The position numbers were made by a program, and so were the translations under genes. Below the pieces are notes generated by a model that saw nothing but the letters and a program-made list of their open reading frames with translations, did no database searches and was not told where the DNA came from. Below, piece after piece: positions 1 through 33,000 of a stretch of 64,000 nt of DNA. Position 1 is the stretch's first letter; each line of letters begins with the position of its first letter. Source of the DNA: Candidatus Omnitrophota bacterium (lineage in GTDB: Bacteria; Omnitrophota; Gorgyraeia; 1-14-0-20-64-10); NCBI GenBank assembly GCA_023248155.1, contig JAHFFE010000004.1:68248-132247 (forward strand). The letters run 5' to 3'.

Positions 1-1
1 C

Positions 2-3000
2 GACTTTGACTTAATCGCCGACGGGAACGCCCATGAATACATTCTGTCCATGAATGACAGCGAACTGTGGAATGGCACCATTACCGGCCTCAAGATCGTA
101 CCCTCGGATGAACCCTCGCACTATGAAATCCTCGGTGCGGCGTCGCGCCAGTCGGTCGATCTTCCGGCCGGGTCCGAATGGGGTCTTTACGGGCCGAAAG
201 AAACCAGCAAGTTCCGCTATGCGGTCGTGGTTGATGGTGTTCAGAGGGGGACGTTCGATGTGCCCTGGAATAAGACGCAGGAGAAAGAAGGCTATGCGGA
301 AATCCAGCTCAACGCTGGTGCTCATCACATTGATATCGTTGAGATGAATTTTTACGACTATCCCTACGCTTCGATGGCGGCATTTAAATCCTATGTGTCC
401 AAGACTCTTGTACGCCGGATTATGCCGGCGGCGGATCTCAACGCGGATAATTATGTGAATGAGGCGGATGCGCGGATTCTGGATACGCTGCGCTCGCGTT
501 TCGAAGCGCCGAACGTTATCGGCCTGCAGGAAGAATTCTTCTCGATTTTGGATAACGGCGACCTGACGCACCGCTTTGTGTCGCGCACGGCGCAGGGCCG
601 CAGTTTTACAAGCGACCCGGCCACGGGGCAGGTCACCATTAATGGCGTCAAACTGCAACTCGGCTATGATGAAGAGCGCGAGCTCTGGCAGGCGTCGCTC
701 TTTGGCCGTGGCAGTGTCAACGTTTATGATCAGGTTCTGCAAATCGGCACTGAGAAAATAGGCGTTACGCGCCGCAAAGACGGCAGTCTTCTTTTCACGG
801 CCTTTGAGCGCACGGAGCCGGTGACTTTTGAATCCGATCCTGCGGCTGAACAAGTCACGATCGGCACGCAGACTTACCGTATTGAACGGGATCCGGAGAC
901 CCTGCAGGTGCGTTTGTTTGAAAGCGCAGAAACAGCGGGGCCCAGCGGCTGGCAGTCAGCCGTGGCCGGCGGCGTTGCCGTGTGGGTGCGGCGCGAAGCG
1001 AGCGGGCTTGTTTTCCGCACCGGCGGCGAAGACCTGGAATTTAACCCGGAAACACGCCGGCTTTCGATCCACGAGAAAAACTACACGCTTTTTGAAAACC
1101 GTCTGGGTCAGCTGACGCTGGTGGAAGTGGATCCGGCTGATCTGGACGGCGACGGCCTTGTGACTTTTGCCGATCAGGCCTTGATGAAAGCCTCGCTGGG
1201 CCGGCAGGCCGCATGGACGCTGGAAGCGATTCAGGCGCGCAATGTCGAAGGCTTTATCCGCGGCCAGCGCAGTGATCAACTGTTTGCGGTCTACGGCAGT
1301 TCGGAAAATTACCGCATGGATTTTGATCTTTTTGCCGACAGCGCCCAGCCGGCGGGGCTTGCTTATTACAACATTATGCTGCGCGCGCAAAGCTATGACC
1401 AAAAAGCCCTGCCCGCCGATTATGAATGGCAGCTTGCCGTCGCTGTTGACGGCGATGACCGCGGCATTGTGATCATTCCCGCGACGGCAGGAAGCGTCTC
1501 CGAGGAAAGCTTGCGCACGCTCATGGCCAACGGTGCGCATACGATCAGCCTGCGCTGGCTGAATCCGCGGCCGGGAACCAGCCTGGCCATCGACCGGTTG
1601 AGGGTCGCCGAAGAAGGCGTTGATCCGGAAGCCAACCTCGTGGTGCGTTCCGGAATTCCGGAGCAGGCGATTGGCGTGCAGACCGAACATTCGGGAGCCG
1701 GCGGACAACTCATCTTACGGACAGCGGCGGGGGAAACAGTTATAACAATTCCGGCGCAGATGCCCTGGCCCGGCCCGGATGATTTTTATTGGGCGGAAGT
1801 GGATGAAAATACGGGCGCCATTCTGCGCCAGGGTTCGCTGCGTTCCGAAGATGCAGACGAAACCGCGCAATTCCTGCTGGATGTGGAAACCCTGCCGGAA
1901 GGCCGCATCCTGGCCGCGGCTTCCTGGGACGGTTTGACGGTGACGCCGTCTTTAGCGCGCGCGCTGGAACGGCTGGGTTCAAAACTGATTCGCAGCATGG
2001 ATGGCGCGCATGAATGGGCTTTTGCCGGCGTCAAAGGACTCCCTCCAGGCAGTGCTTCGGAACAGATTCAGGCGTTAACTACGGGTGACAGCCGTTTGGA
2101 TTTTGATCTGGCCATAACCGGCGGCAGCCTTGAAGACCGCCTGCGGATCAACGCGGCGGACTATGCCGTCTTCCGCCAAGGCATGAGCGACACGGCTGAG
2201 ACTCAGGTCTTTACGCTGCAGGGCAAGGATTATTATGTCAGCGAAACTTCACCGGGAACTTTTGAAGTTTTTGACGGAATTTTGACGAGCGTGCAAAAAA
2301 TCGTGGACGGCCGTCCGGCGCTGGATCTGGGCAGCCGGAGTTTCTTTGTGGAGCGCGGCGTGAACGGCGCTATCCGCCTTGAGGGCATTCTTACCGGCGA
2401 TGTTTTTAGCGACGGTCAACTCGACGGCGCAGATCAGGACTTGCTTGCGGCCAGCCGCGGCCGGTTCAGTTTGGACCGCCGTGACGGCACCGTGATTTTC
2501 AACGAAAGCCAGCCGCTGGTTTATGCCGTCGAAGTGCCGGAAGACGGCCTGTATTCCGTGGGCCTGGCGGCGCGCAATTTCTTCAAGGCAGGCCTGGATT
2601 GGCAGATCGAAGTGGACGTCTATGTGGATGATGAGATTTATCCGCGGACTTCATTTGACGTGCCTGCCGGCCTCAAAGACACGGCAAATTATGTCAATGA
2701 CCTCGATTTGACGGCCGGAGCGCATACGATCCATTTTTACGTGCGCGACCTATACGGCGAGGGCGACCACATCACGCAGAATCCGCATCCTGATCTTGCG
2801 GACCAGCCGGCCGGAGTGGGTTCCGCGCTTCTAGCCGAAAATTTTATTTTCCGGGCGCAGGGTTACCGCAGTGACATGGATCTTAACCACAATCAAAGCA
2901 TTGACACAGGCGATGAAACGATTCTAGCGGGCTTGATTCTGGCCGGGCCGGTCAGCGTGCAGACGCTCGAGCCCCTGCCCGTGAAAGTCCTGCGTCTGGC

Positions 3001-6000
3001 CGGCAAGTTTTACCGGGTCGAAATTTCCGGCACTGCCGTGACGCTGGTCTCCGGCAGTGAAAGCATCACTACGGCCGTGGATGAAGTGATTGAGAAGAAC
3101 GGCGTGTATTACCGCCTGCTGCAAGATGCCGCCGGCGAACTGGCCTTGGCGCGGGAACCGTCCGTCTACGCGTTCCGCGATCCTGCGTTTGAATTCGGCG
3201 CGAGCCGGGCGCTAGACCGTCCTGTTGTTTACGTGCGCGGCCGTTATCTGGAAATCGATCGGGCACCGGACGGCCGCTGGCGCTTTAGCGATGCGGTTGG
3301 CGAATTCCTGTCCAATAGCGAAAAAACCGAAGTTCTGATCATCGACAAGCTTTTCAAAATCCAGGGCGCTCAGGCCGGCGAATTGTCCCTTGAAGAAGTC
3401 CACGCCGAAAGCCTGAAAACGGTGGATTTGGTGATCAATCTAACGGGGGAAGACTACAAGGTCCAGCGTGAAGGCAGCCAGTGGCGTTTTATCCTCGCGA
3501 CGAATGCGGCCGTGAGTTATCTCTCCGTCGACGGTGTGGTCACGATTCAAGACAGACCCTACGCCTTGCGCTGGGATGATCAGCTTCAAGAGTTAGTTGC
3601 GGGCAATCACCCTGTTATTTCCAGTGATCTGGCCGGCCAGTCGGTGGTGCTCGACGGAGTGCTCTATACGATTCGCATGGATACGGCCGATTCGATCAGC
3701 CTGCTGGGTGAAGGTCCGGATGCGCTCGCGGGCGGGACTGTCCCCGGAAACCTTACGCTGGCAGGGGCGGTTTATGCGGTCGAAAAACTCATCGACGGCC
3801 GTTATGTTTTCTCCGGTCAGGTGCAGAGCCGGCCGGCGGAAGAACCCATCCGGTTGTTTGACGGCAAGTTTTACAGCGTGGCGCATGACGGCGAGTATTT
3901 TACGCTCAGCCAAGGCGGAAAGAATTATTCCAATCGTCCGCGTTTAGCGAATTTGCCGGAAGTCGCATCGACCGGTGATTTAACCGCGTTTGAATACTTG
4001 AAAGACGGTACGGTGCGGCCGGAGATCAGCGATGTCTATGACTCTCAATCCGGCACGCTGACGTCCGGCGTTTTTACGGTTCCGGGGGATCAAAACTATA
4101 CGTGGACCTGGGAAATGGCCGCGGGCGGCGAGAGCGGTACCCTGAAAATTCTCAATGCATCCGGAACCGCTGCCCTGCAAGAAACCATCAGTGAATCCAT
4201 GATGTCGATGCCGGGCGGCTGGACTTTAAATTTTCTCAACCCGTTTATTTCGGGCAAGCATGCCGGCTATAAAGTCAGCTACAACACCGGAACGAATACG
4301 CTTACTCTCACGCCCGCCGGCATCACCGGCAATTTTACCGCGCCGGATGGAACGGCTTATCTTTGGGGCCTGACGCGGCATGAGCGCAAAGACTCCGGAG
4401 GGCAGCCGGATACGCTCAATGACGGTTATGTTTTCCGCCTGAGTCAAGCCGGCGGGACGGGCCTTTATGAAAAAACCGGTATCGTTGCGAAGTCTCAAGA
4501 ACTGAATGCGGATTTCACGGGTCTTGTTCAAATGGCCGGCTCGGGCTGGATGGTGCATCTGGATGAAAACAGCGGCAAACTGCGTTTTGATCCCAAGCAT
4601 TCGAGCGGGAGTTTCATTTCGGCTGTGGACGATGAGCGCTACATCTGGTCGATCGATTGGACCCAGACCGGAGAATTTATGAAGGGGTGGACCTTTACGC
4701 TGGAGGATGAGGCCGGCGTCAATACGTTTACGCGTTCCGGTACGCTGAACAGTGATCCGACTTTGGCGATGCCTGAGACGTTTCCACAGCCGTTTGAGGG
4801 TGTTTACGCGCTCGCGAATGCCGTGGAATATCAAATCAGCTTTGATCCGCAGACGAACCGTATGACCCTGGCGCCGCAGCGCGTGCTGGTGGAAGAAAGT
4901 TCTGACCGGATTTTGATTGACGGGCGCTGGTTTGCGATCAGCGGGACGGATACCGGCAGTCTTGTGCTGACGAATGAAATTTTGGAAGAGGCCGGTCAAT
5001 ACCGTTTAGCCGGCGAGCGTTATGCCCAGCAGGTTGAAACGAGCATGAACGAGATGGGTTTCCCCGGGCCGCAGGTGCTGGTGCTGACGGATGAAAACGG
5101 CCGGCGCTTTGAAAGCGTTTTGAATACCACATCCGCCGCGACCGGCCAATACGGGTATAACGCCTATGGTTACTGGGGGCCGATGTATCAATACACCCAT
5201 ACGTACACGGTCACGATCAAAAACATGACGTTTGAAGTGCGCCTGCCGCCCTATGATCCCTACGACTCCAATCCGCCGCCGCTTGAAAATTATACGCTCG
5301 TGCCGTATCAGGCCGCGGCCGTAACGGCGGTTGTGCCGGCGGGGACGCTGGTGAAAATCGGCGGCGCAATTTATGCGATTACCCCCAAGCCGGGCGTTGA
5401 AAATGTCTACCTGATTAGCGACGGCCAAACGCTGACGGAAGCTGGGCTTGGCGAGCCGGTGCGTTTGAATGGCATCGAATACGTCATCCGCCGCGCGCCT
5501 TCCGGAGCGCTCAGTATGATCCAGCAGGTGCAAACGCTGTCCGGGCACCAGGTGATTTTGGAAGGTGTCCGGTATTCGGTCGAAGAGCAGACGGGCCGGG
5601 TCATTCTCTCCGATGGTGTTCAGTCGTTTGAGTCCGATGACGCCAAAGCGAAGATTACGGTCAAAGACCGCCTTTATGATCTTGTGCGCACGGAAGCCGG
5701 CGCCCTGGTGCTGGTCGAATCCGGCGTGGTCCGCTCGTACCAAACCCTGGTTTTCCAAAATAAAACCTACGATGTCCTGCGCAATAGCGACGGTTCGATT
5801 TCGCTGCTCTATCACAAGGCAACGCATGGCACGTTGGCGCCAAAAGAATCCGTCCAGATGCCTGCGCAATTGCGCTATAAAGGCGGAAATTACACCGTGA
5901 GCACGCTGGAAGACGGCCGGCTTCAGATCGAAGGTCCCGAAGGTGTTTCCACCAGCGCGGCGGAAACGGGCCTGATTGATTTTGACGGGAAACTCTGGCA

Positions 6001-9000
6001 GGCCGTGCGGCTTGCGGACGGCCGCTGGACGATTGAGGGAACATTCGAAAGCGCTCCGGCCTCCGGCCAACCGCTGTTTTTTGACGGAAAGATTTACACG
6101 CTTGCCATGCAAGCCAATCAATTCGTGCTTTCCGACGGACGCGCTCACTATACGGCGGATGTCTCGGGTTTTGTGAATTTGAACGGCCGCACGTTCTTCT
6201 GGAGCGGGACCGGGCTGGAGGATTTCCAGATGTTCAACCGGCCGTATCTTGGCAGAACCGATACGGAAATCCAGCTTGAAGGTTTGAACCTGGCCTATCA
6301 GATTGAATATTCCATGATGACGGGCCCGGTCCTTAAAATCACGGATTCTGAACGCAATGCGGTTTATACCAGCTTTACGGATCAAACCAGGGCCTTCATG
6401 GATATCCGGGGCGTTCGCTACGAGATTACGGGCAGCTTGTATGACAGCTTCGGCGAGGGGTTTGGCCTGCGGCCGGCCGCCGGAAACGTGCCGGCTTCTG
6501 CGCCCGCCGAGGAAGGAACCCGGCTTGTGGTGGAAAACCGCATTCTCAGCGTAAGCCTCAAAGCGGGCACCGGCGATATCTATCTGGCGTCCGACGGTAC
6601 GGAGACGCTGGAAGTCCGGCTCGGTGAGACGCTCAACGTCAACGGCCTTCCTTATATGCTTAGTCTGCCAGCCTCCGGCGAACTCAAATTCAGCCTGAGC
6701 AGCCGCCAGATCAGTCTGGCGCAGTTGGGGCTGGATTCGACGTCCTATCTGGCTTTTGAAACCGCGGCCGGCGAATGGGCCTTCCAGGGAACTTACGATC
6801 CCACGGGTGAATTGAGCACAAGCACGGGCGGCGGCACGCTGGTCCAAATCGGCGATCTGAAATATCACATCGAACGCCTCCCTGACGGCGGCCTCAAACT
6901 GACCGAAACCGAAGACAGCGCGCCGGTGGTTTATGAAGATCAACTCTTCCGCAGCGACTTGCAGGCCCGCACGATCCGCATTTCCGGCAAGATCTACCGG
7001 CTCGCACTTGCGGCGGACGGGGACTGGGTCTTGAGTGAAGATTACGAAACTTCGCAGGCCCTGCAGCCGGCGGTGGAAATCGGCGGCCGCAAACTGCAGT
7101 ACCGTTTAGAAGACGCGCAGGTGATCTTGACGGACGGGAAAAACAGCTTCCGCAGCAGCCGCGACGGCTCAAACGTGACGATCGACCATCGCCGCTATGC
7201 GATCCAGCGCAGCGGCAGCGCGATTACGCTTTCCGAGCCGTCTCTGCCGTACAGCCAGACGATCGATGCGCTTGGCGCAATTTGGCTGATCCGCCGCGAC
7301 GCGTCCGGAAAAATCATGGCCGACAATCCCGAAACCCAGGAAACGTTTGCCGGCGATACGGCTGGTCTCGTGATTACGATTCGCGGCGTGCAGTTTGATA
7401 TCACGGGCGAGGAAGGCCGGCGGATTTTCACGCCGCGTATTTCAGCCGAACCCACCCTAGCCGACGGCGCTTTCTTGCTGGCCGGCCGGATGTTCTTTTA
7501 CAAGACCGAAGACGGGCAATTGACCGTGACGTATGCGGACAGCGGGGCCGCGGCCGGCGCAGCGGACGAAAATGCCGGACTGATCGAAATCGCCGGTACC
7601 GTTTATCAAGTGCAGCGCACGAGCGGCCGGCTTGAATTCCATAAGCAAGCCTTTGAAGAAGCTCAGGAAATTTCAGGAGCGGTGTTTTACATCAACGGAA
7701 CGATTTATGAGGTTCAGTATGATGAGACTGCCGGGTCTTTCGAAGTACGCAGCGGCCAGAAAACTTACACCAGCGATCCGGCCACGGGGCATATTTTGAT
7801 CGGCGAAATTGCGGCTGAAATCCGCCGCGATACCGCGAGCGGCGAAATTACGATCACGGTGCCCACAGCAGCCAGCGTCAAGCGCGCCGACCAGGCGGTT
7901 GAACTCAAGGGCCAGATTTATTGGCTGACGCGCCTGGAAGCCGGCCGGTACGAAGTTTATGATCCGGCTGCGAAAACGCCGCATGCGTCCCGCCTTGAAC
8001 AAATTGACGGCGTCTGGCTACCGGTGGTGGATCTGGCCGGCAGTGTTTACCGCGTGGTCGAAGACCGCGGTGAACGCATGCGTCTGGAAGAGGTGACAGA
8101 GGAATTTATTTCCGACGACCGCTTCAAGGTGCTGGCCGGCGGTAAGGAATACACGATCGGCCAGGATTCCGTGGATCAACGTTTCTATCTCGATGACGGC
8201 ACGCACCGTTTCTATGAAACCGGGGTGGATGGCATTATCAAGATCGGCGCTGATTCCTTTAGCGTGCGTGAACTGGCCGGCCGGCGCTTGTTTAATCCGG
8301 AGGTGGTCAAGCGCGCCGATCTGGATCAAAACGGCGAATTCAACGCCGAGGATGCGCGCATCTTGACGCGCCTGGCCAGCCACTACAAAGACATCAACGG
8401 CGACGGTCTGGTCGATCAGCAGGATATTGACGCGTTAAATAAAATTATTGATCTCACGCCTGAGATCCGTGATGCGGTGCCGGATGGTCAGATTACATCC
8501 GATGATTTTACTTCGCTTGACGTCAACCATGACCGCAAGATTGATTACCGCGATGCCAACGCGCTCAACCAGGTGGTGCAGAACCGCTTTGACATCAACC
8601 GCGACGGCCTCACCTCGAGCGGCTCCGGCGTTCCGGCGACGGATGACCTGGCATTTTTCAACGCCCTGTTTAGCCAGATCCGCCAGCTGCAGGCTCAGGG
8701 CATTGTGGTCGAGCCGGCCAAACTAAAAGCGCTGGATGTCAACAATGACGGGCTGGTGACGCATGAGGACGTGACGGCGCTTGGAAAAGTGATCGGCAAG
8801 AATTTCGATATCAATGGCGACGGCAAACTCGATGACCTGGCCAATCGCAAGGATGAAAAACGGCTCGACGATGTGATCAGCGCGCTCGCTTTGAAGATCA
8901 AACAGAACGAATTGACGCTGGCCGATGTGAACCGCAACGGCAAGGTCGATGACAAGGACCGCTCCGACCTTTCGGAATCGATCCGCAAGTATACCCAGCT

Positions 9001-12000
9001 CGCGGTTGCCGCGGATTATGACGCCAGCGGCCTTTTTGATTACGGCGACCTCGTAGCCCTGCAGCGGGATGTCGGCGAAATCCGCCGCGGCAGCCTGCTC
9101 AGCCCGCAGCTGCTCTCGCGCGCGGACATCAATAATGACGGGCGCGTGGATGACCGTGACTGGAGAACGCTGGAGCAGGGCCTGGCTTCGCACCGGGATG
9201 TCAATGAAGACGGCCGCATCGACAGCAAAGACAGCGAGGTGCTGGAACGCTATCTGAATTTCACAGCCGGCGAAATTATTCCGGCCCGCGAAATCCGGCT
9301 CGAGACGCCGGAGGGGCTCGAGAGCCAAATTACGGGCAGTCAGTCCATTGTGCTGGATGACGAGCGCTATGTTGTCTCAAAGAACACCGAAGGCGCTTAT
9401 GTGTTGACGTCCCGCGACGAGACGTTTAACGCCTATGGCGGAATCAATATCGTGGAAATCGGTGAGCACATTTACGACATCTACGAAGATCCGGACGGCA
9501 AGATCCGTCTGGTGGATCAGGAAGCGCGCACGCATCAGAGCATGCACCGGGCGGATTTCGTCATCCGGCTGGGTGAGCGGGAATATGACGCTTATTTCAA
9601 AGATTACGGCCGTTTTGAATTTAAATCCGCCGAGTGCTTTGACGGAACCGAAAACTGCGAAACGGCGCTGAGCGGTTTTGACGACAAAGTAACACTGCAA
9701 AATCAGGTGTTTATCGTTGAAACCGACTCGCTGACGCGTCAGGCCGCGCTCAAAGCGGCCTCGATGCGCAGCCTGAAACGCGCGGACCAGGTCATTGAAC
9801 TGGAAGGCAAACGCTACGAAGTGGTCAATCATTTTGACGGCAGCTATACGTTCAAAACGGATGAGTTTGAACAGCGCTCCGACCGCGATCAGAAACGCGT
9901 CAAACTGGACGGAATTTATTATGACATCCACGAAGATCCGCTGACGGGCCATGTGCAGCTGGCTGAACAGCATGCGATCAGCCGGGTGCTGGCTGACCAG
10001 GTCATCCGCATTCAGCGCAAAGATTCGCTTTCCTTGTCCGAAATTTATGCCGGGGCGGATACGCGGGCGCTTTTCCTGGCCAGCCAGGGCGGACAGAAAA
10101 TCGGCAGTCCGGTCGTTTATGACGATTCTTACCTAGTAAATTTCAACCTTGACGGCACGACGACCTTTACGCATGAGAAGACCGGCACGAAATACACAAG
10201 CGGCCGCTCCCAGGAAGACGGCACTTCCGTTGTGACGATTGACCGGATGGCTTTCCGTATTTTCTCCGATTACGAAAACGGCGGGATCTATATCGAGCAG
10301 GATCATGAAAAACTGGGCTCCGATGCGGGCGCCGGTGCGGGCCGCGGCCAAGTCACGTTCTTGAAAGCCGGCGAGCCGGTGACTTACGAATGGATTTATG
10401 ATGATGCGACCGGCAAGCTCAAGATCAACGGTGAATGGGTCAACCCCGAAACCAATACAGCCTTGCTCGACGGCCAGCAATTCCTGATTAATTTTGATCC
10501 GGAAAAAGGCCGCCTGGCCATGGAACAGGCCTACCTGCGCTCAAGCCGCGTGGCCGATCAGCGTTTGATTCTGGAAGACACGTTGTTTAATGTTTCGCAC
10601 AACAAGGACGGCTCTTTCTCGCTCTTTGACGGCGAGACCAGCTTCCGCACCAACCCGGTGTCCCGCAAGGTGACGATCCGCGGCCGGGTTTACGATGTGA
10701 TTGAAAACAGCTACAGCGGATCGATCACGCTGGCCGAAGAGTACAGCCGTGAAAGCAAGCCGGTCTATGATCAGGTCATTGAACTCAACGGCAAAAATTA
10801 TTTTGTGCGTGAAAATACGCAGGATGGCATCACGGAGTTCATCCACGCTGACGAGACGATCCGCTCCACGGCCAGCCGGACCTGGCAGGACGCATCCATT
10901 GATTTTACCAAGGATAAGATGCCGCAGGGCTGGGCGCCGGAGACGGGCAGCTGGCGCATCATGGCCGGCCGCGCCGAATCGCTGGTGCAAGGCCAGCAGG
11001 CCTCGTTTGCCCGCACCGGGCTTGTGACCGAAACTGATTTTACATTGTCGGTCGATCTCTCCTTTGAAATCCTCAGCGATGAACCCGCCGCGCCTGCCGG
11101 CACAGCCGATGAGCGTCTCTGGGAAGGCTCAGTCCTCTTTAATGTGATGGATCGCGATAACGCTTACGCGGCCCGCCTGTTTGAGCGGGGCGGCAGCCGG
11201 TTTGTGGGGTTATACAAGCTGGTTCACGGGATTGAGTATCCGCTGGCCTTGGAGCGCGAACTGCCGTTTGAGTTCAGCACGGAGACGGATTACCGCATGC
11301 AGATCCGTGTGGAGTCCGGCAAAATCACGCTGGCCATGAATGATCAGCCTCTGCTGGAGGCCCAGGACCATTATTTCACCGGCGGCGCCGTGGCGCTCGC
11401 TGGCAAGGGCCGCGATGTTCAGTTTGACAACATCGTTCTGCATCACGCGCACGAACTGGATCAGCCGCGGCAAGTCACGATAGATGACCATCTTTACACG
11501 ATTTCACGGCGTGATTTTACCGAGACGTATGATCTGGATATCAACCGGGACGAGGCGTTCAGTCAAGGCGACAGCGGCGCCCTGCTGGAAGCTTTGCTCA
11601 GTAACGGGCTTGTCAGCGAAGAAGACTTGGCTCGTTACCGCGCGCAGGGCGGAACCGCGGGATTGGGCGCTAGCGGCGGCGAGGGCGAGGGATCGTTTGC
11701 GGGCGGAGAGAGTGCCGGAGGGGGCGCAGGCATGCCGGCCGGCGGGGAAACTGGCGCAGGTTCAGGCACGTCCTATCAGGTTTCGGAAGACGAAGGCGTG
11801 GATTTGAGCGGCCTGCATGTCAGCATTCCGGGCCGCCTGCCGCGTTCGACCGTGGACATTACCGGCGACGGCCGCGGTGATATTGCGGACATCAAACGTA
11901 TCCAAGAAATTCTGTTTGCCGTGCGCCGCGGTGAAATTGTCCAGCCGCGTGATTACGAGAAGGCGGATGTTACCGGGGATGGAAAAGTTACGGATGCCGA

Positions 12001-15000
12001 CTGGAAAGCGATTGAAACCGCGCGGCTCAAAGCGGCGCGCAGTGACGTGACCCAAGATGGCGTTACGGATTACCGCGATGTTGAAGCGATCCGCCACATT
12101 GACCGCGAAGAAGTCATCCGGGCCACGGCGTCTGAAATCGCGAAAGCGGACCTGAACCACAACGGCGCGCTGGACGCTGCGGATGTGGCGCAGCTTGAGC
12201 AGACCATGAAGCATATGCATGAGCTGGATCTTGATTTCGACGGCAAGATTGTTTTGGCGGACGAACTGGCGGCTTTTGACAAAGCCAAAGAATTTTACGA
12301 TCTGGGCTTGAGCCTGAGCGCCGAACAGTTTGCGCGGGCGGATATCGATCAGGACGGTTTGATCACGCCGGCGGATCTGCGCATTTATGAAAAACTGACC
12401 CAGCAGTGGGATGCTGCCGGCACGCCGCGCAATGTTTTTGATCTGACCAACGACGGCGTGGTGGATGGCAGCGATGAGCAGCGCATGGTTGATCTTTTGA
12501 TGGCCGAGGGCCTCAAAATCACTGAAGAAGAAAAAGTCCTCGGCGATATCAACCGCGACGGCATAACGGACAGCCGTGATTTGGATCTCTATACGCTGAT
12601 TTATCAAAATGAAAACCGGCTGAATATTGATGGGGTGGCGGGCATCAATGCGCAGGATGTTAATAAAGCCGCCTCGATCCGCAGCTGGCTGGCCGCGCGT
12701 AATGCGCCGGTGCGCGGGCTGACTCGGTTGAAAGATCTTCAAGATGCGGGCGTGGACACCGCCAATCCGGATGCGGTTGCCGCGCATCTCAACCAGCTGA
12801 TTTCAACCACGCAGGCCAAGATTGCCGACGTCAACGGCGATGGTCTGATCGATGAAAAAGATTTGGCCCGCGCCCGCGAAGTCGAGGAAATCGTCAGTTA
12901 CGGTATGGACCGCGGCTTTGCGCTGGACATGCGTTTCGATCTTAACCAGGACGGCAAAGTCGATGACAGTGATCTGGCGGCGCTGATGACCGCCATTTCC
13001 AACCAGATTGTGCATGATGTGAATGCGGACGGCGCGGTCAACCAGACGGATGTGGATCTTTTTGACCGCATGATCCGCTATCAACGCACGGGCTATACGG
13101 TGATGCCGGATGATCTGGAGAATGCCGACATTGACCATAGCGGCGCTTTTGATGCGGGCGATGTGACGAATTTCACAAACGCGCTGCCATTCTACCGCGA
13201 TGTGACCGGCGATAAACGCCTGGATAGTGCGGATCTGCTCGCGGTCCGTAAAGCCAAGGCCTTGCAGGAAGCCGGTTACACGGACCGCTCCTCCGGCGAG
13301 CCGGTTTACCGGCCGCTGACGCTGGATCTGCTGCGCCGTGCGGATCTGACCCGCGATAACGTGATCGACAGCGCGGATAGCGCTTTTCTGGCGCAGGCCA
13401 TTCAAGGCAATCTGGATCTGACCGGTGATTTTGCCGTGACGATCGAGGACCAGCTGCGGCTCGGCCAGTATTCGCCGTGGGGGCTGGGCGTGAAGCAAGT
13501 CGAACGTGCAGACATTGATCAGGACAATCTTATCGGCGCGCGTGATTATGCCGGCCTGCTGGCGGCGCTCGGCGGCATTGACCGCGCGGATGTCACCGGT
13601 GACGGCAAGGTCGATGCCAATGATCTCAAAGATTTACGCCGGCTGGTCGAAGCGGCCAAGCTGAAAGTGACCGGCCGCGATGTGGTGCTGGCGGATGTGA
13701 CCCGGGACCGCAAGGTCGATGTGGCGGACGTGACGAAAGTCATTGAAAGCGTACGGGCTTTGCAGGCCTTTGACATCACCGGCGACCGCATGGTCAATGC
13801 GCTGGATGAACAGGCGCTTTTCTTCCTGTGGGGCGTCGAGCCGCTGGATCTGTTAAACCAAAGCGAAGCCGCTTTGGCTGAGCTGGAAGCGCGTGCGGCC
13901 GCTGCGGTCGACGCCGGGGAAGCCCGCGCCATCGAACGCGCGGCCCAAGGTATTTTTAATCAGGCCCTGACCATGGAAGAAACCGGCAAAGCGATTGCGC
14001 GCATGCTGCTCAGCCCCAGCGAATCGCAACAGATGCTGCAGGAAATTGCGCAGATCATGGCGCGTCTTTCCGGACACCGCAGCGCCATCCAAGCCGTGCT
14101 CGCTGCGCTCACCGGACAAGCAGCGCTGGCCCCCAGCCTCGCAAGCCAGCTGGAAGATGCCCTCAAAGTCCTCAAAGAAACTTTGGTTGAAGCGCGCGCG
14201 GCTGAAAGTTCGGATGCGGTGGATTCATTGGTGCTTTCGGTCGAGCCCGTGATTCAAAATATGCGTACACTGGCCGGGACGCAGGGACAGGTCCAGCCAG
14301 GAACTCAGCCGGACCTGTCCCTGGCTGCCTATCTGGATCAGGGCGAGGCTGTTTTTGCTGAACTCTCCGCGTTGGCGCAGTCCGTGCGGCAGGCGGAAGA
14401 GACGATGGCAGGCCTTGCCGAACAAACCCGCAATGCGCTGGCGCTGGCGGATTGGATGAGCCGGCAGTTTGAAGCCGGGGCAGATACCAGCCCTGCTTTT
14501 GTGTCGCTGCTGGCTTTTGGCCGGAATGCCCTTGCCGAGTCGCAGCGTGCGGCCCAGGCTGCGCGCGCCCGGGCGTCGGGTCTTCTGGCACAGATGCCGG
14601 CGAATACCGCGGCCCTGCAGGCCCAGGAAACTTTGCGGGGCGCCCAGAGCCGTTTGGATCAAGCGCTGGAAACCCTCACGCAAAGTTTGCATGAGGCCCA
14701 GGCTGCCGAGAACGGTGCCATGCCTCTGGTGAAGGAAGCTCAGAGCAAACTCGACCACATGCGGATTTTGGCGGCGCAGTCCGTGACCACGGCCCTCGCA
14801 GGCACGGCCGCAGCGCTCGTGACCCAGCTGGCCCGGTCCAATCTCGGCCGCGAACCGACACCGGATGAAATCAGAGCCGCCGTGGCGGGCCTCGCGGCAG
14901 GAGAAACACTGGAACAGACGGCGGGCCGCTTGCTGGCAATTTCCGATGCGGCCCTGATCAAAGCCGCGCTGGATCCGCTGCGGGATAAAACCTCCCTGGA

Positions 15001-24000: not shown

Positions 24001-27000
24001 GGAACGCGTCATTCTGTCGGTGGGTGCGGTGCTTGAAAATTATACGGGCTTAAAACGCAGCGAACAGATCATATTCGCTGCCGGCTTTGGTATTCCCGCT
24101 TCCATGGCGGCCTCACTGAATAAAGATTCTGCCACAGCTATTCTTAAATACCTGTCGGAACAAAGCCTGCACTTCGGCATCAGCGCCTTCACGGCTCTCA
24201 GCTTCATGCTCTCTCAAGACTCACGACTCAAGACTCTCGACTACGAAGAACTCGCGCGCCAGACGATTCTCTCCGACATTCTCTCCGGCGTGCTGCGTGC
24301 CGATACGCGCGGCGAACTGGTCCTCTCGGCTTTTGCGCTTCAAAATACGGCGGCGCACGCGGGGCTCGAACTTTACGGCCGGCGCATGACGGCCGAGGAA
24401 TTGCCGGCGCTTAAATTGCCGGCCATTATTCACCTGGACGGCGATCATTTTGCCGTGCTTGAAAAGGCCGACGCTGAAAACGTGACCGTGCGTGAATATA
24501 CGGGCGATTCTTTTGCGCTGAGCGTGGCGGAATTTGTGAAACATTGGGACGGCTTCGTGATGAGCGCCGATCAACCGGACCGCCGCACGCTTGACAGCGC
24601 GAGCCTGCAGCTCATCCGCGGTTCGGATGCGGCGCTGGGATCAAGCCCTGCCGATATTGCGGCATTGTCCGTCCAGCTTGGCAATTTGTTTGCCGCCATG
24701 GCTTCCGGTTCCGTGGATGCGACGCTGGCTCAGGCCGCCTTGGCCGCGGCAGGGGATTTGGTTTCCGTGCTGGCCATTTTTGAAGAATTAAGCGCCAAGG
24801 GCGCTTATCTCAAGAGTGCCGAAAATCTGGAAGAGCGCCTGCGCCAGCAGTCGCTGGCCTTCTTTGAGGAAATCGACCGGCTGGACCTGACCGTGCGCCG
24901 CGCTTCGCGTGTGTCGCAAGGCAAAGCTTTTATGGATCAGATCACCGCGCGCAACAAGGACATCCAGAATTTGCTCATTATTGCCCAGTCTACGGCTATG
25001 CAGTATCCTTCGAACTCGGCGATTGCCGCGGATCTTGCCGAAGTACAGACCATCGCGGCCCAGGCGGCGAACAAAGCCGCGCAGACCGCGATTTATCTGA
25101 ATGAATTGACGGCCGCCGAAGCCAATGCGGCCTCGCTGGCGTCCGCCATGCGCCAGGATCTTGCGCTCATGCAATCCCTGAACCTGCGCGCGCTGGCCAG
25201 CCGCAGCAGCGCGGAAGTGGCGTCGATTTTCTCGCAGGCGGATGAGATGGAAGACCAGATGCGCTTGCTGCGTGAAGACATCAACGACGTCTACGATGCC
25301 TTTCTCAGCAGTCAAGCCATTCTGGACCGTGCCACGGAAGCCAACGAACTGCTGCTGGAAGCGGCGCGCATCCTGGCCGAGTTGACCGTGCGCGCGCGTG
25401 CCGTGGCCCGTTATAACCAGATGAGCCCGCTGCTGTTGGACCGCGCGGATGTCAACCGCGACGGCAGCGTGACTGCCGCTGACGTGACAGCGCTCAATCT
25501 GGCCATGGCCACGGTGGATGACATCAATCTCGACGGCGTGGTCGACCTGCTCGATAAGGCCATCTGGCAGCAGCTCCTGCCGCTGATTCCGACGCTGGAT
25601 TTCCTGAATGGAACCTTAGCCGGGCTGGGCGATGTGGATGCGGACAGCCAGCTTGACAGCGACGACGTCTCCTTGTTCCGTTCGTACTTGTCGGCTTACG
25701 TCAACGTGGATCAAGACCCAGCCGGGCTGGTGGATTCGAGCGATGTCCTGGCCGTGAGCAATTATGTGAATTCAGGCTACACCTTCAAATACGGCACGCC
25801 GGACACCGTGACGCTGTACCGCTACTTCGGTGAAACCCAGCCCAAAGTCGTGCACGTGGCCGATCCGAACCAGACCATCTATGTCAATTCGATCTTTGAT
25901 GTACTCGATTCCACGAGCAATGAGACATTGGATGCCCTGACGGATGTGGAGTTTCCTGAGAATCAGGGCTTTTATGCCGGCCAGATGCAGGGAATTGAGC
26001 GCTCAGCACTGGCTTCCGATGATGAAAGCGCCGTGGCGCTCTTGGCCAGCCGCGCCCGCGACTTACTGGATCAGGCGCTCTTGGGCCGCGATCTTTTGAC
26101 CCTCATCAATACGCCCGCCAGCCGTCAAGTGGCACAGACTGCGGATGGAACGCTTGAAACTTTGGCTGATCTTTACACGGCCCTGCAGGATTGGACCAAG
26201 TTTGCCGCTCAAAAAGAAGACGTCGTGCGTTTGGATCGCGAAGCGCTCGTCAGTGCGGAAGCGGCGTTGGCCCAAGCGCGTGCCGCATTGGCCGGGCTTG
26301 TCGCTCAAGTCAATGCCGGCACGCTTTCATCGGCGGATCCTGCCTTCGCCGCGGCGCTGGCCAATGTCAGTGCCAGGGAAAGCGCATACACAGCGGCAAA
26401 AAACACCTTGAGCGCATCGGCGCAGGACTCCGGCCGCGTGCGGCGCGAGAAAATCCTGCTGGACTATCTCTACAAGTCGGCCAAGAACGATTTGGAATCC
26501 CTGCGGCGCTCGTACGAAAAAATTCGCGCTCAAGCCGAGGCGTTGCGTTACAAGAGTTACGCGGCCGTTACAAGTTCGTTTGTCCGCTATCTTGGAGATG
26601 CCGCCTATGCCGCGGGGCAAAAACTTGACCCCAATAAACCGGAGGACAAACCGCTGATCCGCGCGCTTCAGGAAGTCCAGGCCTTCCAGTACCGTCTGGC
26701 GGAAACAACCGGCAATGATTTGATGGACTTGTATAACGGCCTTAGCTTTGCGCGTGACAATGGGTGGGAAACCGGTCTTCAGCCGCCGGCGGACCCGATG
26801 CCTTTGACGATGGGCGCCTGGAATGATGATACCAACCCGCTGCAATTGATTGACTTTGATCATTCCAGCGCCCGGGAATTCCGCGCGAACGTCGACCGGC
26901 TCAAAATTATTTTCGAGCATTGGGGCGAACCGCTGCCTGGAACCGGCACGGGTGGTCTTGACCTAATGCTTGATGCCAGCCAGGTTACGTTCATCGAGCA

Positions 27001-30000
27001 GTTACGGGCCAAGATGGATACCATGACGCGTCTGATGCATCAAAACTATCCGTATTGGCAGCTGAAGCTGGGCGACGTGCTCTCAGGCGTGCCGCATTTC
27101 TTTACCGAGGCGCGCATGCTGATCGAAGGCGCTAAAGTGTATTACCAGGAACTCAAGATCCGGGCCGCGCTTGTGCGAAGCGCGCATCAGGCCTATGCCT
27201 CCCGTCAAACCGAATTTAATGCGGCCGCTGCTCGCGCTCTCGGTGTGGACCTGAAGGACCTGGATACGGATGGCGATGTGGATTATGACGATTTGAATGT
27301 TCTTAAAACCCGTGTGGATACGGAAGAGCAGGAGTATACCGGCACGCTGGGCTTAATGAGTGAACTGACCGCGCCCGATGTCGGCCTCGAAGCCGTGTTG
27401 AATAAACTCGAAGGCTTCTACGGCAATATGAAACCCGTGGACCGGCTTGAAAATCTGCGCCGTGAATTCTCGGCTTTTGAAGAACGCGTGCGCATGGCCC
27501 CAACGGCTGAAGCGGCGGCGGCTGAATACGAAGCGGCTGCGCTGGTGCTGCGTGACATCACCATGCCCAATGAAGAACACTCCGTGCGTATTTCCGGTGA
27601 GCTTGACCGCGCCGCCGCGCCGGGGACTTATAATCAGGTGGCCGTGTCTTTTGCCGCACCCATGCCTGAATTCAGAGTCGGGACAACAACCTTCAAATTT
27701 CCATTCCATCTGCGTATTGGCAATGAAATCTTTGGCATGCGTGCCGGCGACCACACCGTGACGCCCGAAATCATGAACCAGGCGTTTACGTTCTATAAAC
27801 TTTATGACGTGGTCGATGTGACTCTGCCGGATGGGTCGATCATCGGTTACAACCAGCCGGTCACCACGCTGGCCGCCATGAATCCCTTTGTTTCGTATTA
27901 CGATATTCCGACGGGAGAACACCGGGTCAACGTGGGACCGATCACTTACCGGCTGGATGAAGGTTTGACCGGTCTTTGGCTGCGGCTTGAAACCGAAAAA
28001 GATCAATATGTGGAAATCGCCGAAGAACAATACAGCCTCTTCATGAGCGGCAATCCCGTTTATATGGCCGTGCGCCGTGCCTATGAAGATGCGGCGGCCG
28101 CCTACGAAAGTGCCGCCAACGCCGTCACCGCCGAAGAGGAACGTGTGGCGGATGAGGAAGAGGATCGCGCGGCAGCTATCCGCCGGAGCGTTGACGCACT
28201 GATGCAAAATCAAATCACACCGCTTGGGCTGGGGATTTTCGGCACATCCGGCAGCGTTCTTTTAGATGCGGCCGAGATCGAGCGCCGTTTGGATGAGTTC
28301 GCGAATTATGAAGCCGAGTTTGATCAATTGCAGAATGAAATCGTCCGCCTGCAAGCCATGGCTTTGGCGCCGGCCCTGACCGAGGTCAATGCCAAGGCCG
28401 CACTGGTTGCCGCCCAAGCGGCGCCGCGTAATGCTGTCAAGGCTGATCTTGAGACAGCCCACGCCCAGGCGCAATTTGCCGCGGAATTGGCCGCGGCCTT
28501 TAACGCCGCGCGCGCGGCGTTGGGAAGGGGCCAGCTTTCGTCATCCGGACTTGCTGGGCTAAGCGAGAGTGTGTTGAATGCGCGCTACAGCGGACTTTTG
28601 GCCGAGAGACTTGCTTCTGAACTGGCGCTGGCGCGCTACATGCAAATCTATGAGCGCATGAATGGTGCGGCGCGCGCGCGTCTGGATTCCATCTACGACC
28701 GCACGGCTTTGGCCGCGGATTGGCAAGCCGCATTCAGCAATTTGAACACGGCGCTGCAAACTGCGGAAGCGGCGCGGATCGCGGATGAGATTACGGCCGG
28801 AACAACGAATTTATCCGCGATTGCTGGCAATCTCAATAGCACGATTACCGCAGCGGATACGAATTTTGACAACCGTAAACTGGTGCTTGATACCGCGGCC
28901 GGAGCGGCCACGGATAACGCCACGCTCAAACCGCTGGTCGAAGGCGCGGACGGCTATATCGAAATGCGCAACAAAATCCAAGGCATGAAAGATCTTTTGG
29001 AACGCGCCCTGAATTGGTCGACGGACGCTTCTTTCGTGGCCTCCGTCACCGCCATGCTGTCGACGATCAATGCGGATGCGGGCGCCTACGACACTGCGAT
29101 CGCGATGCAAAATGTCCGCTTGGCGCATTTTGCCCTGCGTGACGGTCCGGTCACGGGCCAGCGCAACCGGGTCGTGACGCTCAAGAACCAGGCGCAGACG
29201 ATTGACACCGGCCTGCCGCCCAATCCCACGATCCAGGATGCGCGCGCGATCAATGCCGTGCTGGCACGGGTTGCGGCCGCTGCCGGACAAATCGAAAAAA
29301 TGCGCGATGAAGCGCGCGAACTTTTCCGCCGCACGGATGCGTATTATGCGGCGGTCGCGGCTTCGGGGCAGATCATTTTGGCGCCCTTGCGCGCGGATGA
29401 AATCAATGCGCTGAACGACATGAACAACCTCCTTCTCAATTTGAACACACGGCTTGCCGCGCTTGAAAATGACGCCTATCTGGTCGAACGCGACCGGTTG
29501 AACGGGATTAAGGCCGATCGCTTGACGGACAAAAACAACCGTTGGACGGACCTGACGGCAGCCGGCGGCCTGACGCCGATGAGCGGCAGCTATGAGAATT
29601 ACTACGCCAACCATGATCTGGTGCGCGCCCTGCGTGAGGAGACCGACGCAGAAGCCGTGGCCGGTGAGAAAGTTAAGGAACAACGCGACATCGTGACAGT
29701 TCAGCTTGTTGCTCGCGCCGACGCTCTGCGCGCTTCGATGCAGGCTGTTATTCAAAGCCAGCTTGAGCCGCTGCTTGCGGGCCTTCTCGATGTCAACGGC
29801 GTGCCCGTGCTTTCCGAAGCGGAGTTGACTCTGCGCATGGGGCAAGCTCGCACCAAACGCGCTGACTTTGAGGCCCTGCGCGATGAGTTGAACCGGATTA
29901 AAACCTATCTGCCTGACGATGCCCGGGAAGATTTTCAGGTTTATCTGAATGCCGCTTCGACTTTTGGCCTGCGGGTCGATGAGATTTTGACTCAGCTGGC

Positions 30001-33000
30001 GGATGCGCTCAACTATGAAGTGCATGCGGATGGTGCGCGCGCAGCGATGAGCGCCGCTGCGGCCGCTGCGGCCAGCGCTTCAGTGCGGATCGGCGGCCTG
30101 AATTTGACTGCGCTTTCGGATGCGGCTTTGGGCAATCTGCGCTCGGGGCTTTTGAGCGACCGCGCCAATCTTGAAGCCGCCCTGCTCAACTATGAGCGCC
30201 TATTCGCCACAGCCACGGGCGCCAGCCAGAACCGTCTGGCCAGCATCTATAACACCGCGTCCCTGCGGGCGGCCTTTAACAGCATGTTTAATGCACTTGA
30301 TGCCGAACTGGCACGCCGCGAACAGATTTTGATTCAAGCGGCGCTGACAAGTATGCCGCCTGCGCTCACGGCAGCCACATTGGCTGCCAATACGGCCGCC
30401 ACGATTGCCAATTGGAAAGCTGATTTTACAACTCGCCTAGGCCTGTTGGAAAGCGCCTTCCAGACGGCCTCTACGGGTGCGGCCATGAATCTAGTCATTC
30501 TGAATGCGGCGGCAGATGATTTGACGGACCTTCTGCTGGATGCCGAAGAAGCGCGCCGCGCCGTCACGCGCATGCCAGCCTGGGTGGCCGAAAGACCGCT
30601 GACGGAAACAGCGGCATTCCGCAATGAAGTCACAGCCGGTGCAGAAGAGATCGGCTTCCTGCTTCAGCGCATCACGGCCAAAATGCTGGGCATGAACAAA
30701 ATTGCCGGTTATCAGACCATGAAGGAAGGCGAACTCAGCGCGAATCTTACGGTCGTTCAGGCCGCTAAAGCCGAGGTTGATGCGCTTGAGGCGGCCTTGT
30801 TAGCAGTGCCTGCTGCGGATGCGCCCGTCACGGACCTGGATCGCGCGCGCGTGGAAGGGGAGATTGCCTTGAAGGCCATGCATCTGCAATGGTCACTGGC
30901 CGAAGAGCGCCTGCGCGCCTCGCGCGAATTGCAGCTTGGCGCCGGCGCCGCCGCCGCGGGCTATACGGCCCCGTCGGTTTCTGACCAGGATACGGCCTTG
31001 CTTGGCATCATGCAGGCTGCCGGCCGCCTGTCCACGCGCCTGGCCGACCTAGATAAACGCCGCGAACTCAAAGCGCTGGAAGAAGCCCGGCGCAAACAGT
31101 ATGAGGCTGCGCTCAAAGTCCAGGAAGCCAAAGACCGGGTCAATGGCGACTCGGTACTCTACTGGTTCCAGACGGTCCATGACATGGCCTATCAATCCCT
31201 GCAGGAAACCCGCGATCTCAAGCGTGCCTTTGAAAATGCCTTTGCCGCCATGCGCGTCTCGTTTGAAAACATGCGCGCCAAAGTGCAGGCTGAAAACGAA
31301 ATTCAGAAAAAAGCCAAAGATCTGTCCGAGGAACTCAAGGCGCATGCACAAATTGTCAACCAACTTGTCTTTGACTTGTCACTCTTGGAAAATTTCGGTG
31401 AGATCGTGACCGATCCCGACAACGCCAACTTCTCCCATGTGGATTTGGCGGATAACGCCCAAATCCTGCTGCGTCAGATCAACGAATATACGGGCGGGCT
31501 GGGCGACGGCAAGAAGGGCCTGATCGATGACTATCAAGACATCAAGGCCATGGCCGAGTCTCAGCCGGAAAATATCGAATTGCAGCGAATTTTGAAAGAC
31601 GTGGAACCGACCGCGCTTGACGCCATGGCCATTCAGCGCGTACTCAGCGACCTCTTTGGCGTGATGAGCGCCTACAGCCGTTCGGTCCAGCATCAGGAAC
31701 TAGCGCGCGCAGCCATCGAAGCCGAGAAACAGTTGATGGCGCTTTTTGAAAATGAAACCGACGACGGCGCCAAGGCGGCTTACTTTGACCTCTTCCAGCA
31801 GGCGGAAGGCAAACGCCAGGAAGCGATGAATCTGTCCATGTCAGAAGCGCGCGGCATTCTGGGGAACCTGGACCAATTGCGCGAGTACGTCGATAACTCC
31901 GACCCGTTCCTGAAAGAAAACTATCCGTCGCTTCTGACGGCCGACAAGCTGCGCATCGTCAGCCTGCTTGAAAAAATCATCGGCAGTGCAAACCTGTTGT
32001 CTCTCTCCAACGGCACGGGCGTTGAGACACCATTGGGCTCAGTCGTCGATGTGGAACACCGTCTTGATCTGGTGACGCGCCTGCGCAATAACCGGGGTTT
32101 GAGCAACGCGCCGCAGACGGAATCCGGCAGCGCGATGACGAATGTTGAAAATTTTAAATTTAATTTTAAAAATGACGTCATTCCAGCCGGATTCCCGATT
32201 CAGAACAATACTGTCTATGAATGGTTCCCGGCACCCGCAACGCCGCCGGCCGTCACGCCCAAGTGGTACGACCTTCAAGCCGGTTCAATTAATTTCTCGG
32301 CTCCGGCTTCAAATTTTGTACCTGGCCAGGCGTATGTGATTATGCGCTATGTCAAGCATCCGACCCGCTATAGACCGTGGAACGGTGTGGGTCCGGAACC
32401 GATTCATGAAGACGAGGAATTCCTCTACCGTGTCGTCACATTCTTGCGTGAGCCGTCGGACGACAAACCGGGTGAGATGGTGACGATTCTGCAGCAGCCT
32501 GAGAGAAAGCTGATTCCCGATCCCTCTAACCCAGCGGAAAAAATTGTCGGCACGAAGTGGGGGACGGTCGGTACGCCGCGCACTGACGCTATCAACAAAT
32601 ATGTGCCGGGTGTGATTCTTGAGGGTTCATCCACGACCACGCCGCCGGTCGCAGAGCCGCAATGGACCGGTAAGTCAGCGGATGTGGCCAAGGATGAAAA
32701 TAATCAATTTGTCGTGGTCGTTGACGGCAAGATTTATCGTCAATCGGCCGCTCAGGTGACGTTGATCAGCGACAACCGCTATACACCCGGCGGAGATGGC
32801 AAACTGACGCTTCAAATTTTAGTGACCGAGGGCACGGCCATTTCCTGGAAACAGCTTGTGATTATGCCCGAGGCTTTCCGTGGTGAATTTAAAGGCGACA
32901 TCAAAACCATTTTAGGAGCCAAGGACGCGCATGACCGTCTGCTCAAGGCCATGTTCGGCGCCACGGGTACGGCGGCCAATCCGGCCACGCCCGACGGCAT

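Follow-up and report, generated by a model that had tools for sequence, protein, structure and literature searches.

An array of double-hairpin domains, a previously unannotated repeat family, in a giant dockerin-bearing protein of Candidatus Omnitrophota

A stretch of 64,000 nucleotides from a Candidatus Omnitrophota bacterium (assembly GCA_023248155.1, contig JAHFFE010000004.1, positions 68,248 to 132,247; the window hereafter) was analysed for an array of short beta-hairpin modules near its start. Six-frame translation reads the whole window as one stop-free frame on the forward strand (nucleotides (nt) 2-64000, 21,333 codons) that is open at both window ends, and residue i (aa i) of the encoded giant protein occupies nt 3i-1 to 3i+1. 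From the N-terminal side, this protein carries three copies of a double-hairpin unit, called here the A+B domain, then a calcium loop at aa 380, an ILEI domain, one further A+B domain and a long block of them (block 1). A first dockerin array, a second A+B block (block 2), a probable DUF1080-like jelly roll and a second dockerin array follow (Table 1). With the inserts lying between copies, the array extends over about 3,400 residues. The A+B domain constitutes a previously unannotated repeat-domain family with no match to known families. It consists of two module types in alternation and recurs together with dockerins in other proteins of Omnitrophota.

The repeat was detected by several counts. 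A preliminary description of the window had placed about 50 loosely conserved modules at nt 2950-10860, which corresponds to aa ~983-3620. Across the whole protein, 50 copies of the minimal motif [VILMFA]-x-G-x-x-[YFW]-x-[VILMFA] were counted, whereas shuffled versions contain 18.5 +/- 4.2, and 30 of these 50 copies lie within aa 950-3650. An iterated position-weight matrix, with its threshold set to allow about one false positive over the 21,333 residues, recovered 39 units in aa 950-3650, three more upstream (aa 215, 289 and 741) and six weak, scattered matches over the other ~17,700 residues. The gaps between matrix units hold about ten more degenerate copies that can be recognized by eye, and in some units the glycine is swapped for D, N, E or H. 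Together with the 39 matrix units, these copies make the estimate of about 50 a fair one. The array does lie in the interval first proposed, with four more domains upstream of it. In a register-aligned listing, unit spacing within runs ranges from 29 to 46 residues and is mostly 33-36. The fold unit, however, is predicted to be the A+B pair, so that the array amounts to about 28 domains and not to 50 separate modules.

To avoid circularity, a double-unit profile of ~68 positions was built solely from proteins of other organisms and applied with a cut of at least 5 bits. It gave 29 matches, all in aa 172-3626, the strongest of which reached 64.8 bits. As controls, 20 shuffles of the whole protein, 20 of the region and the reversed sequence yielded no match. 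Tandem Repeats Finder detected no array in the DNA, only four tiny chance repeats, which indicates that the repeat copies are old and divergent. In residue-class autocorrelation, lags 34-35 and 70 stood out only weakly (z 2-2.7). These peaks are weak because unit spacing varies, and the profile tests constitute the real evidence.

Table 1. Coordinates of the array and of the features around it. All features are on the forward strand; bit scores refer to the profile built solely from other organisms' proteins (external-only profile).
Feature	Residues (aa)	Nucleotides (nt)	Strand	Evidence
Giant reading frame		2-64000	+	Stop-free; Pfam content ILEI, Dockerin_1 arrays, EF-hand, Peptidase_C39, weak DUF1080
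Upstream run, 3 A+B domains	172-224, 244-309, 328-378	515-1135	+	15.0, 27.3 and 6.9 bits
ILEI domain	600-679	1799-2038	+	E 3.5e-08, passes Pfam cut-off
Isolated A+B domain, after ILEI	735-794	2204-2383	+	12.0 bits
Block 1, 18 A+B matches	996-2757	2987-8272	+	6.6 to 38.0 bits
Block 1, domains 1-6		2987-3160, 3224-3412, 3431-3580, 3614-3703, 3755-3892, 4823-4978	+	External-only profile
Block 1, domains 7-12		5351-5527, 5552-5734, 5879-6034, 6071-6196, 6731-6916, 6941-7057	+	External-only profile
Block 1, domains 13-18		7073-7240, 7256-7414, 7502-7648, 7691-7876, 7892-8101, 8132-8272	+	External-only profile
Insert 1 in block 1	1311-1607	3932-4822	+	No A+B match, no Pfam match
Insert 2 in block 1	1660-1783	4979-5350	+	No A+B match, no Pfam match
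Insert 3 in block 1, partly degenerate hairpins	2066-2243	6197-6730	+	Sub-threshold A+B matches only
Dockerin array 1, between blocks 1 and 2	~2770-3090	8309-9271	+	Dockerin_1 E 1.1e-25, 7 stretches
Block 2, 7 A+B matches, last is A half only	3114-3626	9341-10879	+	External-only profile
Block 2, domains		9341-9535, 9560-9772, 9788-9982, 10121-10312, 10442-10546, 10559-10759, 10772-10879	+	47.4, 15.0, 64.8, 18.1, 6.1, 55.1 and 18.2 bits
Three-domain modelling slice	3114-3332	9341-9997	+	AlphaFold2, 34-row alignment
Reference A+B copy, best-scoring single domain	3263-3332	9788-9997	+	AlphaFold2 with 100 family units aligned
Probable DUF1080 / 3-keto-disaccharide-hydrolase-like jelly roll	~3640-3813	10919-11440	+	Weak assignment
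Second dockerin / EF-hand array	~4050-4394	12149-13183	+	Dockerin_1 E 2e-36; calcium loops aa 4050-4376
Peptidase_C39, mid-protein	~8108-8190	24323-24571	+	E 9.5e-10, passes cut-off

Both in the window copies and in relatives from other proteins, two types of module stand in strict alternation, A and then B. Type A follows the pattern Q-x-[IV]-x-L-x-G-x-x-Y-x-V-x4-D-G-x-[YF]-x-F-x-D-G-x3-[YF]-x-S, and type B follows V-x-[IL]-x-G-x-x-Y-[D]-[IV]-x2-D-x3-G-x-[IV]-x-L-x-E. Structure prediction suggests that the structural unit is the A+B pair of ~60-70 residues and not the single module of 33-36 residues. For the reference copy, AlphaFold2 returned a model with a mean predicted local distance difference test score (pLDDT) of 89.1 and a predicted template modelling score (pTM) of 0.71. 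Its strands occupy residues 2-5, 8-14, 20-23, 28-30, 37-40, 43-49 and 56-60, and the tail is disordered. On this model, the A+B domain would be compact and all-beta, with seven strands in ~60 residues and each strand leading into a short turn or loop. The model of three consecutive units reached a mean pLDDT of 87.5 and a pTM of only 0.45, and its 21 strands form three groups of seven. Its linkers were modelled with low confidence, at pLDDT <50 for residues 63-67 and at 67, as the mean of a 10-residue block, for residues 141-150. A beta-solenoid and beads of tiny beta-sandwiches had both been envisaged for these modules. As far as the three-domain slice goes, the models (pLDDT 87-89) favor the latter, namely about 28-32 small beta domains arranged as beads on a string, and no continuous solenoid is predicted.

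The conserved positions of the domain are mainly hydrophobic or aromatic and alternate along the strands (I3, L5, Y10, V12, Y20, F22, Y29, V38, I40, Y45, I47, I56 and L58), and they are accompanied by turn glycines at G7, G18, G25, G42 and G54. Conserved polar positions are few (Q1, D24, S31, D50 and E60). Paralogous units share ~15-30% identity, nearly all of it at the conserved core positions. This combination of a conserved core and turn pattern with low identity among paralogues marks a structural scaffold and does not point to a catalytic or ligand site common to the units. In a mean-field direct coupling analysis of 241 non-redundant units (Meff 237), artefacts of terminal gaps prevailed, and no usable contact map was obtained.

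To find relatives, 1.84 billion representative proteins were searched exhaustively with HMMER and a profile made from the window's 45 units alone, and 244 proteins were retrieved at E <= 1e-3. The best 150 matches comprise mainly immunoglobulin-like (Ig-like) adhesins with a spacing of ~100 residues, true PQQ and WD40 propellers, and a family with the same period as the window. About 38 other proteins among these 150 share the 33-36 / ~70-residue period together with the A/B alternation. The family was defined by a tandem spacing of 60-85 residues; with the window protein included, 39 proteins carry at least two A+B domains. Family membership was taken from the seed profile and a one-step profile; a profile iterated over all 150 matches was discarded owing to its drift into Ig-like adhesin repeats, which raised the number of included domains from 228 to 985. 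Twenty family proteins were traced by exact sequence. An organism is named for 16 of them, and in every case the source is a metagenome-assembled genome (MAG) of Candidatus Omnitrophota. These 16 proteins are all partial and annotated as 'hypothetical', 'dockerin type I domain-containing' or 'LamG-like jellyroll fold domain-containing'. Since each of these partial proteins roughly fills its contig, they are fragments of giant genes. The Pfam family Dockerin_1 was found in several family proteins, and dockerin-like calcium loops are present in 27 of the 39 family proteins versus 14 of the 112 non-family matches. Thus, the family that had been suspected to be uncharacterized is not unique to this sequence and recurs in dockerin-bearing giant proteins of Omnitrophota. 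A word-indexed homologue search, run with a 976-residue slice and with the 100-unit alignment, gave no matches even though the same collection holds one of the relatives (P0002, described below), and its result is not evidence of absence. Close relatives were likewise not found in scans of GTDB species-representative genomes and JGI metagenomes. A further family protein, P0023 (2,506 residues; ENA contig ERZ28564302 scaffold_1434, 1-27521, on a 55-kb contig), lies between open reading frames (ORFs) of 7,601 and >4,868 residues, from which it is separated by gaps of 26 and 12 nt. Gene calling or sequencing errors may have divided a single giant gene into these three frames.

One relative, P0002 (MBI3306332.1; 5,283 residues, partial), is colinear with aa 233-4500 of the window protein, with which it shares 28% of residues in the first part and 43% in the second. 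Owing to this colinearity, individual domains and inserts correspond one-to-one between the two genomes. Together with the absence of tandem repeats in the DNA, it indicates that the array is old and maintained, and not recently expanded or collapsed. The early judgement that the divergence of the repeats argues against recent expansion or assembly collapse is therefore borne out by a homologue from another MAG. Between the window protein and P0002, identity is 43% at core positions, 38.5% at non-core positions and 39% in the linkers.

The layout of the array is more broken than first described. The two blocks on either side of dockerin array 1 were confirmed, and block 1 proved to be interrupted by three non-repeat inserts. 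Insert 1 (~297 residues) comprises, by eye, about three tryptophan-rich modules of ~100 residues each ('YTWTWEM', 'YLWGL', 'YIWSIDW') and is conserved in P0002 (E 8.8e-19), while insert 3 is conserved in both P0096 and P0002. The calcium loop at aa 380 is dockerin-like and comes right after the upstream A+B run, and the calcium-loop motifs of dockerin array 1 lie at aa 2773, 2797, 2912, 2975, 3005, 3042 and 3066. The jelly-roll module stands directly after the last hairpin unit of block 2. Its start, of the form 'GWxxxxGxW', is readable, and its match to PF06439 is sub-threshold (E 0.016 on aa 3757-3812). Many linkers close with S-x-x-[VR]-A-D, after which comes the Q that is residue 1 of the next domain. 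This ending was counted in 41 of 369 family domains, with Q as the commonest next residue, and examples in the window lie at nt 9767-9790 and 9977-10000. The same ending, as K-R-A-D, is found near aa 2766-2775, where it leads without a break into the first calcium loop of dockerin array 1 (A-D-L-D-Q-N-G, aa 2770).

Comparison with known families supports the view that the domain is uncharacterized, as no match was found in Pfam, NCBIfam, whole-domain PDB-sequence or, at a significant level, Foldseek searches. No Pfam family reaches threshold on the window repeats or on their relatives, and no consistent family emerged from 100 single units, where the matches were scattered and sub-threshold; the most frequent were Flagellin_D3 (4 of 100, best E 0.007) and DUF7244 (3 of 100). 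NCBIfam has no model for the domain, its Ca_tandemer model NF033510 scoring E 0.022 and 15 bits against a cut-off of 50. Sequence matches in the PDB never covered more than one hairpin at once. When the single-domain model was compared with the PDB by Foldseek, no match reached E <= 1e-3 (best E 0.46, query-normalized template modelling score (TM) <= 0.36), and the best matches in BFVD were unnamed small phage proteins (best E 0.066, TM <= 0.50). The three-domain model matched only propellers at TM ~0.15, which we rejected as meaningless global alignments. Flagellin D3 (PF08884), a small hairpin-built surface domain, provides the sole recurrent Pfam match, and the flagellin chain 3v47_C ranks first in Foldseek. 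However, these scores are far below significance (E 0.46, query-normalized TM 0.30, 44 aligned columns), and no homology can be claimed.

Other repeat families with a superficial likeness were also rejected. YD/RHS repeats (PF05593) share short beta-hairpins, a conserved tyrosine, an Asp-Gly turn and an occurrence in very large secreted proteins. They differ in reading Y-x-Y-D-x-x-G-R-L where the A+B domain reads Y-x-V-x4-D-G, no match at E <= 1 was found in the region or in 100 single units, and AlphaFold2 models discrete domains, with no continuous cocoon sheet predicted. RTX nonapeptide, PKD and cadherin repeats gave no match at E <= 1 in aa 1-3667 with Pfam, and neither did the choline-binding repeat CW_binding_1 (PF01473), a G-W-x-x-x-x-G-x-W-Y-Y hairpin whose period is ~20 residues instead of 33-36. 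FG-GAP, PQQ, WD40 and Kelch repeats were set aside because the window has no propeller Pfam match and no ring was modelled. The modules had been judged by eye to be none of RTX, YD, PKD, cadherin or Ig. This judgement holds, as no such model reaches E <= 1 and the Ig-like likeness covers 24 of 70 columns. Nor was there a profile match to a known family such as YD or FG-GAP, the kind of finding that would have explained the modules away.

The gene is best filed as a member of the Dockerin-type giant proteins, a class described in Omnitrophota by West-Roberts et al. 2023 (bioRxiv 10.1101/2023.11.21.568195). There, the class is characterized by dockerin/EF-hand, ILEI, DUF1080, CBM35-like and C39 domains, and most of its N-terminal portion is without predicted transmembrane domains. 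Attachment to a host or prey surface and the processing of cell-surface polymers are both proposed. A 2026 complete-genome survey also lists the dockerin-bearing class, as class 3 (bioRxiv 10.64898/2026.06.07.730766), and Seymour et al. presumed an adhesion role for giant ORFs with few annotated domains. The window protein shares with this class its giant single ORF, Dockerin_1 and EF-hand arrays, ILEI, Peptidase_C39, long unannotated repetitive stretches and named relatives from Omnitrophota only. The CBM35-like and DUF1080 domains reported for the class gave only sub-threshold matches here (CBM_35, E 0.045), and TSP3 repeats, also reported for it, were not detected in the window by Pfam scans. 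The repeat itself differs. The published proteins are described with ~200-residue CBM35-like barrels joined by helices and an antiparallel beta-helix tubule of ~1,500 residues, and the searchable text of neither giant-protein paper defines a ~70-residue double-hairpin domain or an A/B signature.

Given this context, we assign a probability of roughly 60% to the reading that the region is the outer, N-proximal part of a Dockerin-type giant surface protein in which the A+B beads act as a passive extender or scaffold. The array is flanked by calcium-binding and lectin-like modules and belongs to a class of presumably extracellular proteins, and for this reason an extender or spacer is the best-supported interpretation. 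Each A and B would fold together into a domain of ~60 residues followed by a linker of 5-12 residues, and such domains would be joined in a series interrupted by dockerin arrays, ILEI, the probable jelly roll and the three inserts. The array may thereby space the calcium-binding and putative glycan-binding modules and project them outward from the cell, in the direction of the surface of a host or prey. The tandem Ig-like arrays of giant RTX adhesins do the same job and serve as the model for this role.

Several points weigh against this interpretation. The extender role rests on analogy, and the extracellular location is presumed for a protein whose N-terminus lies beyond the window. Between the window protein and P0002, conservation at non-core positions comes close to that of the core (38.5% versus 43%). 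Such constraint on the surface exceeds what a passive spacer needs and hints at unit-specific contacts, either with a ligand or in packing between domains. Modelling covered three consecutive domains, so that a higher-order packing such as a tubule may exist. In addition, Foldseek has low power for all-beta domains of 60 residues, and the absence of a known fold is not established by its results.

Two alternatives would assign the modules to known architectures through a shared hairpin. The modules might be blades of PQQ-type (BamB-like) beta-propellers and the region a string of propellers, with which they share the hairpin signature D-G-x-x-Y-A-x-x-x-D-G-x-x-x-W-x-F and a period of ~35-40 residues (PQQ_2, PQQ_3; 3hxj; Cake and Scone). 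The single-module profile indeed matches the designed proteins Cake10 (E 1.7e-19) and Scone and the natural 3hxj (E 4.8e-09), and it drew the real PQQ and WD40 propellers P0093 and P0102 from the exhaustive search. However, a single repeat adds only ~5-7 bits (per-domain i-E-values around 100), and the totals are inflated because designed blades are identical; once the full A+B profile is used, the match to 3hxj weakens to E 0.009. No propeller Pfam model lies on the window. Propellers are rings of 6-8 blades, each of ~40 residues and four strands, whereas the period here is 33-36 with A/B alternation and AlphaFold2 predicts discrete seven-strand domains of two modules (Foldseek TM ~0.15), and we consider this explanation largely refuted. 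The Ig-like extenders of RTX and Bap adhesins (MpAFP/MpIBP region II, 4p99; NF033510) are similar in design, being long tandem arrays of small all-beta domains that project ligand-binding modules in giant surface proteins, with calcium elements and a near-identical hairpin, [VI]-x-[VI]-x-G-x-x-Y-x-V-x-x-D-x-x-G. If the A+B domains were shortened, highly diverged members of such repeats (Big or Ca_tandemer), the hairpin V-T-[IV]-N-G-x-x-Y-x-V-T-x-D-x-x-G-N-W of the ~100-residue repeats, which matches the profile and places P0001, P0004 and P0005 at the top of the exhaustive search, would be explained, as would the hhalign probability of 91% and the weak matches to NF033510 and to MpAFP RII (4p99, E 0.045). 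Nevertheless, the hhalign match spans only 24 of 70 columns, one hairpin and a strand, and it is circular because the compared proteins were chosen by that hairpin. The periods differ (~100 versus ~70 residues), and the Ig-like units are ~100-residue sandwiches in near-identical copies, as opposed to ~60-70 residues, seven short strands and 15-30% identity here. The seed A+B profile did not retrieve these repeats, no Ig-like structure stands among the Foldseek matches listed, and no Big_* Pfam match was found. Membership in these repeats therefore appears very improbable, and the Ig-like extenders of giant RTX or Bap adhesins offer the best functional analogy.

The remaining alternatives would account for unit-specific contacts, at which the conservation of surface and linker positions hints. 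The domains could be a multivalent array of lectin-like or carbohydrate-binding modules (CBMs) that grip cell-wall glycans of a host or prey, with the aromatics stacking against sugar. Several conserved aromatics per unit (Y10, Y/F20, F22, Y/F29 and Y45), a surface nearly as conserved as the core between homologues, neighbors tied to glycan binding (ILEI, the weak CBM_35 and DUF1080 matches, and dockerins), beta-trefoil lectins among the weak Foldseek neighbors and the published polymer-processing proposal (bioRxiv 10.1101/2023.11.21.568195) are consistent with this. Yet the aromatics alternate with aliphatics within strands, as core residues do, the ~15-30% identity of paralogues falls almost entirely in the core with no surface site common across units, no CBM or lectin family match reaches significance and lectin structures score TM <= 0.31 at E ~1, all of which leaves glycan binding by the beads doubtful. 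Alternatively, packing of the beads could produce one uninterrupted superhelix or tube, an 'antiparallel beta-helix' that may correspond to the published tubule of ~1,500 residues. From 1,000-residue AlphaFold2 fragments, West-Roberts et al. predict this tubule for a Dockerin-type protein, describe its 'external paired antiparallel beta sheets' (bioRxiv 10.1101/2023.11.21.568195) and compare it with RHS shells. Block 1, at ~1,760 residues, is of similar size, and the conservation of linkers (39%) and surface (38.5%), together with the S-x-x-[VR]-A-D-Q linker motif, fits fixed contacts between domains. Against such packing stand the discrete three-domain model, with linker pLDDT of about 50-67 and pTM 0.45, the confident folding of a single unit on its own (pTM 0.71) and the three unrelated inserts that break block 1, and we regard a tubule as unlikely. 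Finally, the A+B domain might be a new small beta fold specific to Omnitrophota, a 'mini-cohesin' partner of the interleaved non-cellulosomal dockerins, with calcium-dependent contacts between dockerins and A+B domains within one molecule or between neighboring molecules. The association of the domain with dockerins and the conservation of surface and linkers between homologues fit this idea, as does the lack of a recognizable cohesin in the window in general Pfam scans. We consider it improbable, but if it were true, the giant protein would be zipped into an ordered extracellular coat or tubule around ultra-small cells.

Giant proteins of Omnitrophota are among the longest predicted in any organism. 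That most of their length is unannotated is stressed in both reports on them (bioRxiv 10.1101/2023.11.21.568195 and 10.64898/2026.06.07.730766). The extender reading builds on a familiar design, as tandem small-domain extenders are found in giant bacterial adhesins, and it reveals no new biological mechanism; it is the domain itself that is undescribed. For one unannotated piece of these proteins, our analysis provides a searchable definition consisting of a ~68-position profile, an A/B signature and a confident predicted fold. The domain could enter databases as a new family and would help to identify pieces of dockerin-type giant genes in metagenome assemblies and to connect them. Furthermore, fragments of 70-220 residues are suited to expression, structure determination and binding work, which makes the proposed attachment role testable.

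Beyond the array, the giant frame holds other features. Calcium-loop motifs number 22 in the whole protein, of which lone examples lie at aa 8483, 8507, 9086, 15090, 15253 and 15695. For Peptidase_C39 domains in giant precursors such as the one in mid-protein, possible self-processing has been suggested in the literature. From roughly aa 8,200 to 21,333 (~13,000 residues), no Pfam match at E <= 0.01 was found, and one helical-repeat match is sub-threshold. Within this part, residue-class autocorrelation at aa 9000-11000 (nt ~27000-33000) is sharp at lag 7 (z = 6.6), a periodicity that suggests a long heptad, coiled-coil-like segment. On the minus strand, ORFs of up to 645 residues (e.g., nt 5006-6943) are nested wholly within the giant plus-strand frame, and they are most likely non-coding shadow ORFs in a sequence of 57% G+C.

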